64,000 bases of DNA, taken from positions 26,446 to 90,445 of the forward strand of contig JAKAFY010000001.1 in the NCBI GenBank assembly GCA_021817785.1, read 5' to 3'. Origin of the DNA: a bacterium (GTDB lineage: Bacteria; Patescibacteriota; Microgenomatia; UBA10105; UBA927). This document shows, one piece after another, positions 25,908-33,042 of the stretch. The position numbers were made by a program, and so were the translations under genes. The notes below the pieces were generated by a model that was not told the DNA's origin, did not search any database, and saw only the letters and a list, made by a program, of their open reading frames with translations. The first letter of the stretch is position 1. Each line of letters starts with the position of its first letter.

Positions 25908-25930
25908 ATAGTATGTATCTTATACGACGT

Positions 25931-26085
25931 TCGTTACTTTGTTACTTCGTTACTTTGTTACTTCGTTACTTTGTTACTTCGTTACTTTGTTACTTCGTTA
26001 CTTTGTTACTTCGTTACTTTGTTACTTCGTTACTTTGTTACTTCGTTACTTTGTTACTTTGTCAATTTGTCACTTTGTTAATTCC
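25931..26085. repeat. tandem repeat array, 16-bp unit TCGTTACTTTGTTACT (itself two 8-mers TYGTTACT), about 8 perfect 16-bp copies plus degenerate 8-mers
   Basis: Read directly: ...tcgttactttgttacttcgttactttgttact... x8, then ttgtcaatttgtcactttgttaatt. Lies between the tsaE stop (26070) and tsaC start (25907). The degenerate end overlaps the last tsaE codons. The period is not a multiple of 3. Confidence 0.85.
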
Positions 26086-26528
26086 ATCTCTATCGTATGA
26101 CTCCCATCGGGCAGCGCCGCAAATCGTATATCCACCCGTGTATCCGGCAACAGCATGCCTAACCGCTCCGGCCATTCGATCACGACATATGCGGCGGGAT
26201 CCGTACGCATTTCGTCAAACCCCAACGCTTCGATGTCTGATGTGCCCTGCACGCGGTACAAATCCATGTGATAGAGCATGCGCGTCGTTTTCGGAATACT
26301 ATAACGTCGCACAATAATAAAGGTAGGCGAGGGCAGGCGACTGGTTATGCCAAGTCCCCTGGCCAGGCCCTGGGTAAACGTCGTTTTTCCGCTGCCTAGT
26401 TCTCCCCACAGGCACAGGACCCGGGGCGCCTCTCCCCTCTTGTCTGCTAAAAGGGTATGTCCAAGCGTCTCGCCCAGCTTCTGAGTAGCTTCGGCGCTTT
26501 TTGTAATTGTGTGCAAAGGTAATACCAT
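26070..26528 (-). CDS. tsaE: tRNA threonylcarbamoyladenosine biosynthesis ATPase TsaE
   Basis: TITKSAEATQKLGETLGHTLLADKRGEAPRVLCLWGELGSGKTTFTQGLARGLG. Walker A in the YjeE/TsaE context. Confidence 0.85.
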   Translation of the reverse strand: MVLPLHTITKSAEATQKLGETLGHTLLADKRGEAPRVLCLWGELGSGKTTFTQGLARGLGITSRLPSPTFIIVRRYSIPKTTRMLYHMDLYRVQGTSDIEALGFDEMRTDPAAYVVIEWPERLGMLLPDTRVDIRFAALPDGSHTIEMELTK

Positions 26529-26931: not shown

Positions 26932-27756
26932 TCATTCTCGTTTTATAATTTTTTTCCATACGTCTGTTTTCTGCCACGCGGTCGCAAACGAAAGCAATGC
27001 GAGTCCGCTGCCGATACACAAAAACGAAAAGACAAACGGCGATTGGCTGACCCGCGCGCCGCTTATGGTCGCCTCGTCGCTTGTCTCCGGTATCGCATCC
27101 GAGGTTTCCACACTCTCCGATGCGATTGCACTTCCCAGTATATCAGGATTTATTTGTTCCGTGGGTGACGGCGCGCCCGTCGATGACGGTGTCGCCGTGG
27201 GAGTGACGGATGGAGATGGTGTATGGGTAGCGGTGGGATTGGGCGTATTAGTAGGAGCAGTTGTAGTAGTCGGAACTGGCGTAGGCGTATGGGTAGGGCC
27301 GGTGATGGCAATAGTTACTTCCCCGCTCCACACCGAGGCGGAACTGCAGCTAGGCGTATACCGGCCTACCTTAAACAGATATTCTCCCGGGCCGTTGTAG
27401 TACGGGCTTGCCGTATCCGGCTTCACCTTCAATACCCCGCTCCAGGTCCCCTCTTTCGAAAGATCGGTTTGCAGGATTTTATAGTACTGGGTGCAGCTTC
27501 CTCCCGGCGCATTGGTCCACGTGCCGTCGTTACTCTGCGTATAGCCAAAGTAGCTTGATCCGCTGGGATAAAACGCCCCGCGCAGATAGGAGTCGGTGCT
27601 GCAGCTGGGGCAGGAAAACTGTACGGTGATTTCCGATTCCGCGTTTTCATCCAAAGTCGTAGGAACCGCGGAAAGCGAGAGCGTCTGCGTGCTCGCAGCA
27701 AGGACAAGCGGAACAAATAATTTCCCAATGACGCTGAACCATGGCAGATGGTTCAT
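26932..27756 (-). CDS. secreted surface protein with Pro/Thr-rich linker and C-terminal hydrophobic anchor
   Basis: Signal-peptide-like N-terminus (MNHLPWFSVIGKLFVPLVLAAS). Cys-containing beta domain. The linker ITGPTHTPTPVPTTTTAPTNTPNPTATHTPSPSVTPTATPSSTGAPSPT is low complexity. C-terminal FVFSFLCIGSGLALLSFATAW helix plus basic tail. Confidence 0.6.
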   Translation of the reverse strand: MNHLPWFSVIGKLFVPLVLAASTQTLSLSAVPTTLDENAESEITVQFSCPSCSTDSYLRGAFYPSGSSYFGYTQSNDGTWTNAPGGSCTQYYKILQTDLSKEGTWSGVLKVKPDTASPYYNGPGEYLFKVGRYTPSCSSASVWSGEVTIAITGPTHTPTPVPTTTTAPTNTPNPTATHTPSPSVTPTATPSSTGAPSPTEQINPDILGSAIASESVETSDAIPETSDEATISGARVSQSPFVFSFLCIGSGLALLSFATAWQKTDVWKKIIKRE

Positions 27757-27866
27757 TTGATATACCAGTGTACGGGATGTTTATGGAAAATTCTGTACGA
27801 TGGATTGCAGTACAGGTGTTGGGACGAAATCGGAACAACAATTAACGCTATCTTAAATTTTTGATT

Positions 27867-28508
27867 TTAGCCCTTAATTTGTTTCCTGAATTCATTCTTA
27901 ATATCAAGTATTAGCTTTTCATACTTATCTTTTACGGCTTTGTTTGTTTTAATAGTTGATTCTGCATCCTTTTTTGTGAATCCCAATTGCTGTGAGCTTT
28001 GAGGCGATGTGCTTCTGATATCAATAAGTTTCAGTTTTCCAAATCTAAATTGCTCAAATTGACTAAATAATTCCATTAATTTTTTGTAATGCGATTGTTC
28101 TATAAGTAGTGTATTCTCTTCAACAGCATTTTTCGTTAATCTTATCTGCTCAGAAAATGATGGGATTTTTTCAGGAGATGGGTTGTTCCAAAGCGCATCT
28201 GCCAGCTGTTTGGTTACCATTAAAATTTTCCAAAGATTATTATAGAGTTCAAATTGTTTTTCTGAGTATCTTAAAAAGAGTACTTTTGTTTTTTCCAATT
28301 CAGTTTTTGTTTTTTCTAGTTCGGTTTGATACTTATTTTTCAAATCTTCTAATCCTCGTTCATGTGAATTTTTATACTTTTCAAGTATCCCCTGAGAGAT
28401 AATTTCACCTAACCATTTTGCAATCGCAATAATTATTGCTCCAGCCCCAAAAGTGGAGATAAAAAATGCTGCCACGATATTAAATGCGCTTTGGAATGAT
28501 ACATTCAT
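27867..28508 (-). CDS. hypothetical protein, N-terminal TM plus coiled-coil (low-GC island gene A)
   Basis: ORF 27867..28541. Start at MNVSFQSAFNIVAAFFISTFGAGAIIIAIAKWLG (28508) avoids overlap with gene B. Lys/Glu-rich coiled-coil (ELEKTKTELEKTK). AT-rich codon usage unlike flanking genes. Confidence 0.5.
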   Translation of the reverse strand: MNVSFQSAFNIVAAFFISTFGAGAIIIAIAKWLGEIISQGILEKYKNSHERGLEDLKNKYQTELEKTKTELEKTKVLFLRYSEKQFELYNNLWKILMVTKQLADALWNNPSPEKIPSFSEQIRLTKNAVEENTLLIEQSHYKKLMELFSQFEQFRFGKLKLIDIRSTSPQSSQQLGFTKKDAESTIKTNKAVKDKYEKLILDIKNEFRKQIKG

Positions 28509-28510
28509 AA

Positions 28511-28867
28511 TTAATAATTTAGATTGTTTGCCCTTAACCAATCGTGTAGTTGATCGGGATCAACATTGTTAAACCCTAAATATCTGTTCTTAGTTAAATA
28601 TCCAATATGCTGCCCATTTAAATAAATTGCTGGGGGAGTACTTGTATAAGGGTTAAACGGACTTAATGAGGAATACTGACTTCCGTAGGTTCCATATTTG
28701 TTAAAAATTGATGTTGCGGAGTATTGATTCCCATAATATCCATAAGGGTTGGAAATTGATTCAGCATCAAAATTATTAAGCGAAAGTTTTCCAAGATATT
28801 GACCGTCATTAGCAAGTAAAAACGATTCATGGTTTTGAGCTTTTGCAAGGATTTGCTGAAATTCCAT
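28511..28867 (-). CDS. hypothetical protein with NPYG/Tyr-Gly-rich repeats (island gene B)
   Basis: 118 aa with SNPYGYYGNQYSATSIFNKYGTYGSQYSSLSPFNPYTSTPP repeat-like region. No family recognized. Confidence 0.45.
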   Translation of the reverse strand: MEFQQILAKAQNHESFLLANDGQYLGKLSLNNFDAESISNPYGYYGNQYSATSIFNKYGTYGSQYSSLSPFNPYTSTPPAIYLNGQHIGYLTKNRYLGFNNVDPDQLHDWLRANNLNY

Positions 28868-28885
28868 ATAATAATTTTTAAAACG

Positions 28886-29578
28886 CTAAGCCATCTCTTT
28901 ATCGTATTTTTGGGTTAATAATTCAGCTTCTATCCAGTGAGTTGTTAATTTTATCAATTCTTTTAGATTACTTATGTCTTTATCTGTCCAAGTTCGATAG
29001 TAATGAACCTCATCGTTTCCTAGCCACGCCGCTCTCTCAGTACATTTTTTAATATTTGTATCATCTATCAGAGCTAAGACAGGTGCGAGTGTCTTATATT
29101 TTTTAATTTCCTCTGCTCGTTCAGGGTATTTTACAGATAGGTAATCTTTAACTAAGTACTCCAGACTCTTCCTATAGCCTCCACCACAAACCTCATCTAA
29201 ACCCATTGATTCTGCTATATAAGCTTGATTATATATTCTTCGAAATTTAGGCGACGTCATGTTAATTTCATTAGGAAATTCAATTGGTTTAAAATACTCA
29301 GGGACTCCAACCTGGGCCAATGTAAAATAATCGCCATGACGTCCCACCTTGGAATAATATGCAATAAAATATCTCTTACATTCGTTGCGAGAACACTTAA
29401 AAACAACTTCAACTATTTCGTCATAGTCCCATAACGCACCCAAATTTTGAGAATTCTTAAATATTGGACTTGTTGGTTTTCCACACCTCCCGCAGATATC
29501 AGGAAAGTCGTTTATCGTAATTGAACCACGACTTCCTTCATTAATCTCTAACGATATCAAAGATGTATCTCTAGCCAT
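28886..29578 (-). CDS. zinc-ribbon plus DUF4145-like domain protein (island gene C)
   Basis: 230 aa. N-terminal Cys4 (CGRCGKPTSP...CSRNECKRY). C-terminal ERAAWLGNDEVHYYRTW resembles the DUF4145 R-x-GN-x-x-H core. The assignment is tentative. Confidence 0.5.
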   Translation of the reverse strand: MARDTSLISLEINEGSRGSITINDFPDICGRCGKPTSPIFKNSQNLGALWDYDEIVEVVFKCSRNECKRYFIAYYSKVGRHGDYFTLAQVGVPEYFKPIEFPNEINMTSPKFRRIYNQAYIAESMGLDEVCGGGYRKSLEYLVKDYLSVKYPERAEEIKKYKTLAPVLALIDDTNIKKCTERAAWLGNDEVHYYRTWTDKDISNLKELIKLTTHWIEAELLTQKYDKEMA

Positions 29579-29777
29579 ATAATTAGCAACATCGTACCAC
29601 TACTTAACCTAAAGTCAATTGTTTTTAAGTAATGGTTTCGCGCCGCCGCGTTAATGCGAGTCAAGGGAGCGTTCGCGCACTCGTTCAATCCTTCACATCC
29701 GTGAAAGACATCAACCCGCCACGCTGATTAGTTTTACACCTCGTCCCATAGGCTACCTCGTCCAAGTTTATTAGTTC

Positions 29778-29798
29778 GCACCCCCGGTGTGTGGGCAG
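29778..29798. repeat. GC-rich palindromic element copy 1 (variant CGCACCCCCGGTGTGTGGGCA)
   Basis: Read in the divergent C/D intergenic region. Shares the GCAC..CC..GG..GGTGTG..GGG core with copies 2-4 but has the central CCGGGGG inverted to CCCCCGG. Confidence 0.5.
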
Positions 29799-29869
29799 AT
29801 AACTCCCATAGAGGTCATATTGTTAGCAGATGAAAAGATGTAATTTAGAGCGTATAATTGCCCTTTACT

Positions 29870-30502
29870 ATGAATTACGAACGTATTTTGCCTCATACAA
29901 CCGAACGGGAGATTGTTCGTGAAGCTGCTTCCAAGAGTCCATTACATTTGGTTTTCGCGGGCGCATCAAGTACAGGAAAAACAACAATGATGGAGATATT
30001 GAGTACGCAGATTGGAGTACCAACCATACCGGAAACGGCACGCTCAATCATAAAAGAACAGGGTTGGAAACGTGAAGACTTAGACAATGCCGCCACACTG
30101 TATGATCTTCAGCAGCGGATTGTAACCAAACAGTACGAACAAGAAATTGTGCTCGCACACGTACCACATTGTTCTGATCGAAGTATCTTTGATCCCCTAG
30201 TGTACGCAGAAATGTATCTCGGGCTGGAAGCGATGGAAAAACTCAAACAGATGCCGGAATATTCCGGGATAGATACCATATATAAAAATGCGCTATTTAT
30301 CGTTATCGAACCAAACGAACGCACATTTCGTAATGATGGGGTTCGGATTTTACCGGATATTCAATTCGCACGGGAATTTAATAACCGCATTAAACGGATT
30401 TTAGAGGACTATAAATTGCCCTACATAGAAATACACTCGGCCTCTATACACGAGCGCGAGGAGGAAATCTATAGAAAGCTGGCACAAAAACTTCTTTTGT
30501 GA
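29870..30502 (+). CDS. P-loop NTPase (AAA_28/NadR-like ATPase or kinase) (island gene D)
   Basis: ORF 29858..30502 starts on TTG inside a TATAAT box; ATG at 29870 (MNYERIL) is more likely. Walker A LVFAGASSTGKTTMMEIL and a Walker B-like LFIVIEPNE. Confidence 0.6.
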   Translation: MNYERILPHTTEREIVREAASKSPLHLVFAGASSTGKTTMMEILSTQIGVPTIPETARSIIKEQGWKREDLDNAATLYDLQQRIVTKQYEQEIVLAHVPHCSDRSIFDPLVYAEMYLGLEAMEKLKQMPEYSGIDTIYKNALFIVIEPNERTFRNDGVRILPDIQFAREFNNRIKRILEDYKLPYIEIHSASIHEREEEIYRKLAQKLLL

Positions 30503-30510
30503 GCTTGTTT

Positions 30511-30532
30511 CGTACACCGGGGGTGTGGGTGA
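30511..30532. repeat. GC-rich palindromic element copy 2 (CGTACACCGGGGGTGTGGGTGA)
   Basis: Nine nt after the stop of island gene D. Stem CACACC / GGTGTG around GGG. Confidence 0.7.
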
Positions 30533-30547
30533 ATAGTTTCTTCATTT

Positions 30548-30964
30548 TTGACTTATAATAATTTCCGGTGTACTATTTGTCCGATGGCACGCGTATATCA
30601 CACCGGCGGAAAAGAAGATACTATAATCGGATTTACAGCTGTCGAGTTTAACGCTAATAATCACACCCTCCGAATAACAACTGACTCACCCAAATCCCTC
30701 GCCAACTGGATACGGAGAGACCTCCGTAGAGGTGATATATCTCTTTGGCTCGCATCCGAAGACAAAGCTGATTTAGCGTACACATCAGATATATTAAAAC
30801 GGCGGGTTATTACTCGTGATCGAGGTTCATTGGCATTTCGCCTACGGGAATCAGGGACGGCAAAAGTCACAATATACCCTTCACGAATGAGCCGGAAACA
30901 AATTAAACCCATTGAGTTACCTGTATTCGCAGAGTTATTTTTTAGACCGTCGCACGACGCCTGA
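30548..30964 (+). CDS. hypothetical protein (island gene E)
   Basis: 138 aa ORF with no recognizable motifs. Alternative start at MARVYHTGG (30584). Confidence 0.4.
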   Translation: MTYNNFRCTICPMARVYHTGGKEDTIIGFTAVEFNANNHTLRITTDSPKSLANWIRRDLRRGDISLWLASEDKADLAYTSDILKRRVITRDRGSLAFRLRESGTAKVTIYPSRMSRKQIKPIELPVFAELFFRPSHDA

Positions 30965-31016
30965 AGTTAGATACGTACAATCTTTATTACGCGTTCTCGA
31001 AAATGAACATCCACTA

Positions 31017-31424
31017 TTAGGCGGTGGTGCGTACCATTTTTTGGGGGAAATTTATCCCAAGAAAATAATCAGTAGGTTTATGTGACGCTAGGAGTGCTTT
31101 GATTTGATCCACAACCGGCAGTTTTAATGACTTAATATCAAATGGCGTTCTCATGTCTAAGTGGATGCTGGCAAACGACATCGGGTGAAGCAGATCCGCA
31201 GCATCAGCGGTTAATGTTTCTAACAGCGGGCGTTCTTGAGACTTGGCCATCAATGTAACGTTAACGTATTTATGTACTTGATACGGCTTTACTACTTTCC
31301 AGCCTTTTGAGTGCGCTACGCGATCTTCGGTGGTTCTAAACAGTAAATCTCCCTTCTGGTTCATTTCAAGAGAGGCTTCTTTAATCATGGAAGAAATTAT
31401 ACCTATTTTTGAAGAAAATGTCAA
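31017..31424 (-). CDS. hypothetical protein (island gene F)
   Basis: 135 aa ORF. Possible internal start MIKEASLEMNQ. No recognizable motifs. Confidence 0.4.
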   Translation of the reverse strand: MTFSSKIGIISSMIKEASLEMNQKGDLLFRTTEDRVAHSKGWKVVKPYQVHKYVNVTLMAKSQERPLLETLTADAADLLHPMSFASIHLDMRTPFDIKSLKLPVVDQIKALLASHKPTDYFLGINFPQKMVRTTA

Positions 31425-31442
31425 CTATAGGCTATATATTTT

Positions 31443-31497
31443 ACGCACACCGGGGGTGTGGGTGAGTAGGCATTACATCGACAGCCGGTCGACTTCG
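31443..31497. repeat. direct repeat copy 3: palindromic element ACGCACACCGGGGGTGTGGGTGA plus a duplicated gene 3' end (..ACATCGACAGCCGGTCGACTTCG)
   Basis: About 52-bp repeat nearly identical to 31813..31864. Its minus-strand reading gives ..HEVDRLSM-stop, a remnant of the C-terminal codons (..FEVDRLSI-stop) of the gene at 31840..33042. Confidence 0.75.
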
Positions 31498-31557
31498 TGA
31501 AAATTTCATTCTTACAAAAGCCCAGCGTGTGAGGTTGATCATTTCGAACAGGAACTA

Positions 31558-31770
31558 TTAATGACCTCCAAACGGCCAATGTAATCCCTTTTTTCTAGTT
31601 TTCTGTTCATTCTTCTTCCAATCTTCGCCCGTTTCACCAAATGGATGACATGGCATAGGACACACAACACTTCCACCAGGAATTTTATCCAGATTTGGTT
31701 TTTTGACCTTTAATTTAGTTCCGTCACCCCAATCTACTTCTTTTACTTTAGTTTCGTTTTTACCACCCAT
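31558..31770 (-). CDS. hypothetical small protein (island gene G)
   Basis: ORF 31558..31818. Likely start MGGKNETKVKEVDWG (31770). Lys-rich with a CPMPCHPFG motif. Flanked by the ~52-bp direct repeats. Confidence 0.35.
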   Translation of the reverse strand: MGGKNETKVKEVDWGDGTKLKVKKPNLDKIPGGSVVCPMPCHPFGETGEDWKKNEQKTRKKGLHWPFGGH

Positions 31771-31812
31771 AAGAAGAGAGATTATAACAGAATTAGTTAT
31801 TAAACAAAAATA

Positions 31813-31864
31813 ACGCACACCGGGGGCATGGGTGAAAAATTATATTGACAGCCGGTCGACTTCG
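31813..31864. repeat. direct repeat copy 4: palindromic element ACGCACACCGGGGGCATGGGTGA plus the authentic 3' end of the C39-like peptidase gene
   Basis: Overlaps the stop codon (31840) of the PcsB-like gene. Same ~52-bp unit as copy 3. Confidence 0.75.
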
Positions 31865-33042
31865 AAGACGCTTCCCAGGGAATAGCTATCCGTAAACACT
31901 TTGTCGTGTCCCCCGTCCTGATAGGGATCGTTCATGATGTACTGGCCGTTGGAGTAGGATTTTATGACGACAAAGTGCGTATCAAATGGTCCATAATTAA
32001 TTCCAACAATAACTGGACCATCTTTAACCAAATCAGGACTTAATTTATATCCGACACTAAATCTATTAATAGTTACTCCCTTTACGCTTATAAAGCCTTT
32101 AAGTAACATTGCTGTTCCAACGGAAAAATTACTTGGATCAGATACGGCGATATCTAGTGGCTTAATATCGGTGCGTCCTAAATGACTTGCTACCATGGCA
32201 ACAGATGTAACAAGACATCCGACACGAGCAATACTACATGACCCATTACAATCGTTTCTCCCGTTTATTAATACATTCCCCCACTGGCTGTCCCGCTGGT
32301 TGTAATAGCATCCCCAACTATCGCAGTGCGTTTGTCCCGACAGCAATCCGCCGCCCTGGCTGGTCGCAAAGCTTGCAAATCCTGCCAGCTGCGCCCGCGC
32401 GGCAGCCAGTAAGCTCTGGTATTTGCTCTCGTCATTTTGGGTTTGGGACAGAAGCGACTGTTTCTCGCTTTTTTGCTGGGCCAGCAAATTGGTGCGCTGC
32501 ACGAGCTGTTTATTGAGCGCTTCCTGCTCTATGCGCTTTTTCTCCCGCATGTCTTTCCGGTCGTTATAGTCGTTTTGGGTAAGCTGCAGCTGTTTATACA
32601 GCTGGGTGTCTTCTTCCTGCAGTTGCATCAGGTACTTTGCCCTGGTAATCATCTCGGTAAAGTCGGAACTAAACAGCAGCCACCCGAACTGCGACGCGGT
32701 CGACCGTTTGTACGACTGCGGTATGCGGTACAGCACCATCTGCAGCCGTTGGGTTTTCAGATCCTCCAGCTTGCCGATTTCGCCGTCCAGCTGGTTTATC
32801 TCTCCGTCCAGCGCCGTAATTTTCCGTTTGGTATCGTCTATCTGCAGACTCGTCAGCGTAATCTGGGAATTGAGAAGCGTGATTTGTTTGGACAGGGTGT
32901 CTTTCTGTGTCTGCAGTCCCGCAATGGTTTGCTCCAGTGTTGCGATCGTCGTCTGCAAATCCGTCTGGGAATCCGCAAAAACCCTCACGGACACAAGCGT
33001 GAGTATAAAGACGATGACGCCGATCTGAAGAATTTTTTTCAT
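31840..33042 (-). CDS. secreted coiled-coil protein with C-terminal C39-like (papain-fold) cysteine peptidase domain; PcsB/EnvC-like FtsEX-associated hydrolase candidate
   Basis: 400 aa with signal peptide (MKKILQIGVIVFILTLVSVRVFA), a long Q/L-rich coiled-coil (aa 25-230), and a C-terminal domain. That domain carries HCDSWGCYYNQ...CSIARVGCLVTSVAMVASHLG...GINYGPFDTHFVVIKSY...NDPY, matching the Peptidase_C39_2 Cys/His arrangement. Sits immediately downstream of ftsX. Confidence 0.7.
   Translation of the reverse strand: MKKILQIGVIVFILTLVSVRVFADSQTDLQTTIATLEQTIAGLQTQKDTLSKQITLLNSQITLTSLQIDDTKRKITALDGEINQLDGEIGKLEDLKTQRLQMVLYRIPQSYKRSTASQFGWLLFSSDFTEMITRAKYLMQLQEEDTQLYKQLQLTQNDYNDRKDMREKKRIEQEALNKQLVQRTNLLAQQKSEKQSLLSQTQNDESKYQSLLAAARAQLAGFASFATSQGGGLLSGQTHCDSWGCYYNQRDSQWGNVLINGRNDCNGSCSIARVGCLVTSVAMVASHLGRTDIKPLDIAVSDPSNFSVGTAMLLKGFISVKGVTINRFSVGYKLSPDLVKDGPVIVGINYGPFDTHFVVIKSYSNGQYIMNDPYQDGGHDKVFTDSYSLGSVFEVDRLSI

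Follow-up and report, generated by a model that had tools for sequence, protein, structure and literature searches.

A solitary zinc-ribbon/DUF4145-type protein and a putative small-molecule kinase as apparently independent cargo of a mosaic island in a Patescibacteria-type genome

Among single-gene defences that join a zinc finger to a HEPN domain, PD-T7-4 was annotated as 'Zn finger-HEPN' and is encoded by one coding sequence of ~219 aa that often overlaps an integrase gene (PMC9519451). It has since been renamed RAZR, an abortive-infection ribonuclease (RNase) of Escherichia coli UMB1727 in which a single gene combines a zinc finger with DUF4145 (PMC13017515, PMC9519451). The RAZR zinc finger binds ring-shaped phage proteins, namely an Erf-like annealing protein or portals; ring binding leads to assembly of a 24-mer, activation of the DUF4145/HEPN RNase, cleavage of tRNA, rRNA and mRNA and abortion of the infection (PMC13017515). 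Its catalytic residues, R146 and H154, lie 8 positions apart, a non-canonical spacing in an enzyme that is nevertheless active (PMC13017515), and DUF4145 had been placed in the HEPN superfamily by Anantharaman et al. (PMC3710099). DS-38, another validated single-protein defence, also consists of a HEPN domain and a zinc finger, and because this finger is reported to differ from that of PD-T7-4, several zinc-finger/HEPN clades exist (bioRxiv 10.1101/2025.01.08.631726). Here we analyse a 64,000-nt stretch of a Patescibacteriota contig (JAKAFY010000001.1 of GCA_021817785.1, positions 26,446–90,445; hereafter the window, to which all positions refer), in which two divergent genes, C and D, lie within an island of low G+C content. 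A first-pass annotation, made from the letters alone, had described them as a zinc-ribbon/DUF4145-like protein and an AAA_28-like P-loop NTPase and had proposed that together they form a two-component defence or toxin module.

The genes and the island were confirmed. Both open reading frames (ORFs) are present on opposite strands (Table 1), and G+C content falls to 32–43% in the 1-kb windows of the 28–32-kb interval, from ~50–55% on both sides. The pairing was not. No D-type gene was found near any of 164 loci encoding C homologues, which comprised 80 loci from 80 species genomes (6-kb flanks; drawn from at least 523 genome loci), 80 of the 384 viral contigs that encode a C relative, and four contigs carrying the closest homologue of C. 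Conversely, none of six loci of D relatives (two near relatives and four weaker metagenome loci) had a C-family gene nearby. Homologues of C and D were therefore never seen together elsewhere; the only approach to a joint occurrence among the 80 genome loci was one marginal P-loop match to the D profile (E = 4e-4), ~3 kb from the C homologue. Homologues of the other island genes were absent as well from the surroundings of C homologues at the 80 genome and 80 viral loci.

Base composition likewise sets the two genes apart. C has 35.8% and D 42.7% G+C, compared with 48–55% in the host genes that flank the island. G+C content at third codon positions (GC3) is 26–29% in C and in the ORFs g118 and g213 (C, 29%), 38–41% in D and in the ORFs g138 and g135 (D, 41%) and 57–67% in sampled flanking host genes. 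Since C and D differ in GC3 and are separated by host-like sequence and one repeat copy, and since the site is empty in close relatives, independent acquisition is indicated, and the two look like separately acquired neighbours. With moderate confidence, we read C and D as independent cargo of a small mosaic island, inserted at a variable site 3' of a peptidase gene in a Patescibacteria-type genome, with C as a putative lone RNase and D as a putative kinase.

The low-GC segment is an insertion with mosaic cargo. On the source labels of homologues of its proteins (Gottesmanbacteria or Microgenomates), the host genome is probably of the Patescibacteria type. Junction alignments place its beginning directly after the stop codon of a CwlO-like/C39 peptidase gene, and we compared this site in seven related loci (L179–L185). 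Three of these relatives (L181, L182 and L185), whose peptidase gene is 70–80% identical, have the order FtsE, FtsX, peptidase, 54–83 bp, next gene and TsaE, with nothing inserted. At the same site, L179/L180 and L183/L184 hold different, unrelated single ORFs (181 aa and 129 aa), and none of these cargo genes resembles an island gene. Because it is empty in three relatives and holds other cargo in two, the insertion site is a variable hot spot.

Gene C is solitary and mobile, and has no conserved partner. The protein collection contained 459 homologues, and besides the viral contigs several plasmids encode members of the family. The recurrent neighbour families (serine recombinase, tyrosine integrase, HNH endonuclease and IS110 transposase) each occur at 3–5 of the 80 genome loci, and an all-against-all clustering of neighbours yielded no family beyond 5 of the 80. 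Among 148 immediate neighbours of C homologues, a Pfam scan found no family in more than two, and a few restriction genes were detected by the Pfam and PADLOC scans. The closest homologue (80% identity) stands alone beside an ornithine carbamoyltransferase gene on its four contigs; DNA similarity between its locus and the window is confined to 28869–29581, breaking off at the ends of the ORF, and stops 17 nt beyond the C stop codon. In Streptococcus phage Spn1 (L093, 4010–4699), a C homologue belongs to the lysogeny module, where it is flanked by the CI repressor and the early lytic genes, with an Abi gene two genes away and an integrase in the same module. The C-family gene of pneumococcal and S. 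suis prophages, likewise part of the lysogeny module, is labelled only 'hypothetical' or 'DNA binding protein'; 36 Streptococcus phage records contain it.

Family assignment of C depends on its relatives. The protein itself has no significant match in Pfam, NCBIfam or PADLOC; PF13643 (DUF4145) does not match it at E ≤ 1, and the gathering cut-off of 23.1 bits is not reached. PHROG 1305 matches C over its full length (E = 1.9e-38). Of 27 relatives, 24 match DUF4145, and four (P0050, P0100, P0085 and P0092; 27–29 bits) exceed the gathering score over the whole 88-position model. Since C has full-length homology to these four proteins (37–44% identity), the DUF4145 label is valid at the level of the family, and the earlier description of C holds in the form of a Cys4 ribbon joined to a family-level DUF4145 domain.

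Conservation and predicted structure are in agreement with this description. In alignments of 27, 88 and 37 diverse members from many phyla, the cysteines of C29-x2-C32 and C62-x4-C67 are invariant or nearly so. The conserved C-terminal block reads G-x-G-Y-R136-K-x-L-E140-x-L-x-K144-D, followed by R182-A-A-W-L-G187-N188-D189-E190-x-H192. Over 27–88 homologues, R136, E140, G187, N188, D189 and H192 are invariant or nearly so, with R136 and H192 classed as invariant and K144 listed as invariant too; R182, 10 residues before H192, is at least 90% conserved. The AlphaFold2 model of C, built on 88 sequences, has a predicted local distance difference test (pLDDT) score of 91 and consists of a six-stranded beta domain (residues 8–91) and a helical domain (residues 103–228). 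In Foldseek searches the best meaningful matches of the helical domain were the HEPN proteins 1wol and 2hsb (probability 0.96–0.97), and the modelled domain has a HEPN fold. The zinc ribbon gave a weak profile match to that of RPB9 (E = 0.28), a comparison that the RAZR authors also made (PMC13017515).

In overall design, C resembles RAZR/PD-T7-4. Both are proteins of ~220–230 aa with an N-terminal Cys4 ribbon of the RPB9 type and a C-terminal divergent HEPN domain of the DUF4145 type, and both are encoded by a single gene, on mobile elements, with no conserved partner and with a non-canonical Arg–His spacing. By analogy with this architecture, C is most likely an abortive-infection RNase that needs no partner, and we infer from it a defence function, RNase activity and sensing through the zinc ribbon. 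In this model a phage protein would be recognized by the N-terminal Cys4 ribbon as sensor. Upon binding and oligomerization, the C-terminal DUF4145/HEPN domains would take up an active arrangement and cut cellular and phage RNA, so that translation stops. The anti-phage setting suggested for both genes in the first-pass annotation is plausible for C, given its zinc-ribbon/HEPN architecture; nothing links D to known defence proteins.

Several observations weigh against C as a RAZR-like RNase. The canonical HEPN motif, Rx4-6H, is not present in C, where the corresponding motif is R-A-A-W-L-G-N-D-E-x-H, and the canonical Arg position, 5 before the His, is an invariant Gly throughout the C family. 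Catalysis is accordingly not assured, because Gly occupies the canonical site and the nearest conserved Arg, R182, stands 10 residues before H192 (8 in RAZR). Neither C itself, which also lacks a Pfam match, nor any of the 27 relatives has a meaningful match to a PADLOC model; PADLOC 2.0 includes a PD-T7-4 model. Housekeeping genes are common among the immediate neighbours of C homologues, which makes the defence-island signal weak. Finally, C is tightly spaced with g118 and g213 in the window, and the three genes are probably co-transcribed here.

The relationship to RAZR also finds no echo in sequence searches. phmmer and two family-profile searches of the PDB returned no RAZR chain at E ≤ 10; as a control, a Gp77 query found 9Y6U/9Y9C in the same PDB library (E = 1.4e-142), where chains OA and OM are RAZR (PMC13017515). 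A blastn comparison of C homologues from gammaproteobacteria with E. coli genomes gave no match. The proteins further differ in the distance of the His from the C-terminus, 38 residues in C and ~65 in RAZR. Because no RAZR chain or PADLOC model was matched, the Arg–His distance is 10 and not 8, and Gly occupies the Arg site, membership of C in the RAZR family is not established, and on these comparisons C should be filed as a distinct zinc-ribbon/DUF4145 clade. DS-38 and C are alike in being single proteins that pair a HEPN domain with a zinc finger. The HepT toxins of HEPN–minimal nucleotidyltransferase (MNT) systems (5yep, 7ae2, 8xdj) combine the canonical Rx4-6H motif with a conserved MNT partner gene; both are absent in the case of C, which carries a zinc-ribbon domain as putative sensor.

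A broader proposal can be built on that filing. The C family would then constitute a separate, widespread clade of zinc-ribbon/HEPN immune sensors, extending from Patescibacteria to Streptococcus prophages, with a Gly-substituted 'GNDExH' active site and other phage triggers. At this locus, C would be one of several independently mobile mini-cassettes stacked at the hot spot at the 3' end of the peptidase gene, accompanied by att-like hairpin repeats and with no recombinase gene among the island ORFs. Such a clade could have arisen apart from RAZR, or could have diverged from it beyond sequence recognition. We advance this proposal tentatively, as a possible but rather unlikely account of the whole.

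Improbable, in our assessment, is the view that C serves mobile elements as a zinc-ribbon protein that binds nucleic acid or has a regulatory role, and that its HEPN-like scaffold is catalytically dead and has no nuclease activity. This view draws on the label 'DNA binding protein', attached to PHROG 1305 and to several phage records, on the invariant Gly in place of the canonical HEPN Arg, and on the position of the Spn1 homologue in a regulatory, lysogeny region. Prophage lysogeny modules, however, are a typical home of defence genes, the Spn1 homologue has an Abi gene two genes away, and the PHROG 1305 label is annotation only. Moreover, N188, D189, H192, R136 and E140 do not vary even between very distant members, as expected of an active site, and the precedent of RAZR shows that non-canonical Arg–His spacing is compatible with RNase activity (PMC13017515).

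For gene D, the assignment as an AAA_28-like P-loop protein was upheld by a direct match. Pfam AAA_28 (PF13521) matches it with E = 8.1e-23 (81.9 bits against a cut-off of 27), and further matches were obtained with the NadR kinase-domain model TIGR01526 of NCBIfam (E = 3.6e-11) and with two phage families, phrog_2107 and phrog_3462, of which phrog_3462 is categorized as 'moron, auxiliary metabolic gene'. Its best sequence matches in the PDB are NadR (6gye, 7e-5; 1lw7) and a deoxynucleoside kinase. The conserved motifs are all intact: the Walker A motif GASSTGKT (G31-x4-G36-K37-T), E55-x-A-R58, D103-R104 and the lid D156-G-x-R159. The AlphaFold2 model (pLDDT 93.8) has as its top Foldseek matches deoxyadenosine kinase (8puu; Giardia and Mycoplasma enzymes), NadR (6gyf/6gye) and thymidylate and shikimate kinases; the matches listed include neither a polynucleotide kinase nor a protein kinase.

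D is therefore probably a small-molecule kinase related to the ribosylnicotinamide-kinase domain of NadR and to deoxynucleoside kinases. With the C-terminal kinase domain of NadR and the deoxynucleoside kinases (6gye/6gyf, 1lw7, 8puu, 2jat) it shares AAA_28, Walker A, the D-G-x-R lid and the fold (Foldseek E = 8e-7 to 4e-5; template modelling (TM) scores 0.59–0.66), at an identity of only 16–23%. Unlike NadR, it is a stand-alone protein of 210 aa without adenylyltransferase or helix-turn-helix domains. Relatives of D are scarce: 1.84 billion representative proteins contained two near relatives (41% and 40% identity), and a metagenome scan with a 3-sequence D alignment yielded 4 weak loci. The near relatives adjoin genes for PdxS/PdxT, a HAD hydrolase, thymidine kinase or a PMT glycosyltransferase, which are housekeeping settings, and PADLOC returned nothing meaningful for D (best E = 0.008).

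These data also bear on the suggestion that D is the cargo that matters, a salvage kinase for nicotinamide adenine dinucleotide (NAD) or nucleotides that would help the element or its host against nucleotide or NAD depletion and would be unrelated to C. The NadR-domain and PHROG matches are in keeping with such a role, as is the location of D within the inserted segment, where repeat copy 1 lies on one side of it and copy 2 on the other. Its nearest relatives, however, are chromosomal and in housekeeping settings, and the metagenome scan added only the four weak ones; we consider the suggestion quite improbable.

The spacer between C and D had been read as a shared divergent promoter region of ~280 bp with a palindrome and an unusually GC-rich patch. 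Its length is 279 bp from the TTG start of D or 291 bp from the ATG at 29870, the start used in the public annotation of identical contigs (GCA_021842445.1, GCA_027424485.1 and others). The palindrome, CACCCCCGGTGTG, is present and lies inside a degenerate repeat copy. The notion of a shared promoter region did not survive, as the promoter scan placed the candidate C and D promoters near either end of the spacer, at a distance of ~210 bp and with host-like sequence and one repeat copy between them. Since the candidate C promoter ends ~13 nt before the ATG, the C leader would be very short; this core promoter is the sole portion of the C upstream region that aligns with the loci of the 80% homologue. 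The patch, at 54.8% G+C, is GC-rich merely relative to the island, because this value equals the host level. It has no significant similarity elsewhere and is not conserved upstream of the closest C homologue. Its interpretation as an RNA element was rejected, as it contains no tRNA, matches no Rfam family and shows no folding signal above that of shuffled sequence (z = +1.15).

Downstream of C on the same strand lie g118, for which no family match was found in Pfam, PADLOC, NCBIfam or PHROGs, and g213, which has no known family either. Homologues of both are adjacent on an unrelated 35-kb viral contig (L188, 898–1902), beside a Dam-like methylase gene; the g213 relative is 57% identical, and neither a C nor a D homologue is present with this pair. 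From this arrangement, g118–g213 may be an independent two-gene module. A three-gene operon system of C, g118 and g213, specific to the island, would explain the same-strand gaps of 18 nt and 3 nt and the similar composition of the three genes (31–36% G+C, with GC3 alike across them as given above). It is very improbable, given that no g118 or g213 homologue was found near a C homologue at 160 loci, that the 80% homologue of C lacks both genes and its DNA similarity ends so soon after the C stop, and that the viral pair occurs without C.

HEPN toxins are often under the control of a partner enzyme, and MNT AMPylates HepT (compare 8xdj). This precedent, the adjacent and divergent placement of C and D within a foreign island and the intact conserved residues of D notwithstanding, a two-component defence or toxin–antitoxin module, in which D would regulate or neutralize the HEPN protein or repair RNA cut by C, is so improbable that it can practically be set aside, given the complete lack of joint loci in both directions, the housekeeping settings of the near relatives of D, its lack of a meaningful PADLOC match, the unlike composition of C and D, the distance between their promoters, and a D fold shared with small-molecule kinases, polynucleotide and protein kinases not being among the matches listed.

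The island also contains short repeats. A hairpin repeat of 22–29 nt, with the core CACACC-GGG-GGTGTG and a 6-bp stem, occurs in four copies, all of them intergenic and within the island (Table 1). Three good copies match CGYACACCGGGGGTGTGGGTGA at 30511, 31444 and 31814 with at most 2 mismatches, where zero matches are expected by chance. No further copy was found in the 64-kb window, and the repeat was not found at the same site in six related genomes. Repeat copies separate the modules of the right-hand part of the island, and copies 3 and 4 extend to ~55 nt, each being joined to one of two versions of the final 26 nt of the peptidase gene (31472–31497 and 31839–31864, 367 nt apart, 92% identity), an att-like signature. 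The version within the island (31471–31497) matches the end of the peptidase gene of L181 at 89%. A comparable event is seen in L179 (10140–10340), where a second version of the final ~55 nt of the peptidase gene follows ~85 nt after the real stop codon. These duplications suggest site-specific integration into the 3' end of the gene. The search for recombinases, confined to the seven island ORFs, gave no match in Pfam, NCBIfam or PHROGs. An integron-like reading of the repeats was not adopted in view of the short hairpin with its 6-bp stem, the mixed orientation of the cassettes and the lack of a visible integrase gene in the island.

Table 1. Features of the island and its borders, ordered by position in the window
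Feature	Position	Strand	Size	Basis	Remarks
274-aa gene	26932–27756	minus	274 aa		host gene; its promoter region borders the island
Whole low-GC island	27811–31839	none	~4.0 kb	junction alignments, empty sites in relatives, composition	
g213	27867–28508	minus	213 aa	public gene calls	N-terminal transmembrane segment and coiled coil
g118	28511–28867	minus	118 aa	public gene calls	rich in Tyr, Asn and Ser; starts 18 nt downstream of C
Gene C	28886–29578	minus	230 aa	ORF list	
Candidate C promoter, sigma-70-like	29591–29618	minus		promoter scan	TTGACT, 16-nt spacer with TG, TACGAT
GC-rich patch	29633–29800	none	168 nt		54.8% G+C; between the C and D promoters
Repeat copy 1, degenerate	29774–29802	none			contains the palindrome at 29779–29791
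Promoter-like site for D	29830–29858	plus		consensus match only	ATGAAA, 17-nt spacer, TATAAT; just 5' of the ATG at 29870
Gene D	29870–30502 (ATG start)	plus	210 aa	public gene calls	ORF from TTG, 29858–30502
Repeat copy 2	30508–30536	plus			6 nt after the D stop codon
Repeat copy 3 and duplicate of the peptidase gene 3' end	31441–31497 (repeat 31441–31469)	plus			att-type appearance
Repeat copy 4 and true peptidase gene 3' end	31811–31864 (repeat 31811–31839)	plus			terminator-like for the peptidase gene on the minus strand
CwlO-like/C39 peptidase gene	31840–33042	minus			host gene; its stop codon borders the island

Further features were recorded in and around the island. About 480 bp (30537–31016) contain no gene in public assemblies and no Rfam match at the gathering threshold; a 138-aa ORF in this part (30548–30964) has no homologue beyond identical contigs and no family match. 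Upstream of the next gene, the motif ATCGTACA is conserved in the window and in the five loci read at this point, L179, L181, L182, L183 and L185. Outside the island, a tandem array at 25930–26080 comprises 9.4 copies of the 16-nt unit TTCGTTACTTTGTTAC (96% match) and yields spurious repetitive ORFs. Flanked by the Sua5/TsaC-like and TsaE genes, the array covers the 3'-terminal 11 nt of the TsaE ORF (26070–26528, minus strand).

Collectively, these results indicate that adjacency within a low-GC island is no evidence of a functional pair, and the comparative test applied here tells two unrelated cargo genes apart. Should C prove active, the sensor–RNase design of the RAZR type would extend to bacteria of the candidate phyla radiation and to a clade missed by current defence-finder models. 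Annotation would then be gained for ~0.3% of species genomes and for hundreds of prophages in which these proteins now appear as 'DUF4145' or 'DNA binding protein'.

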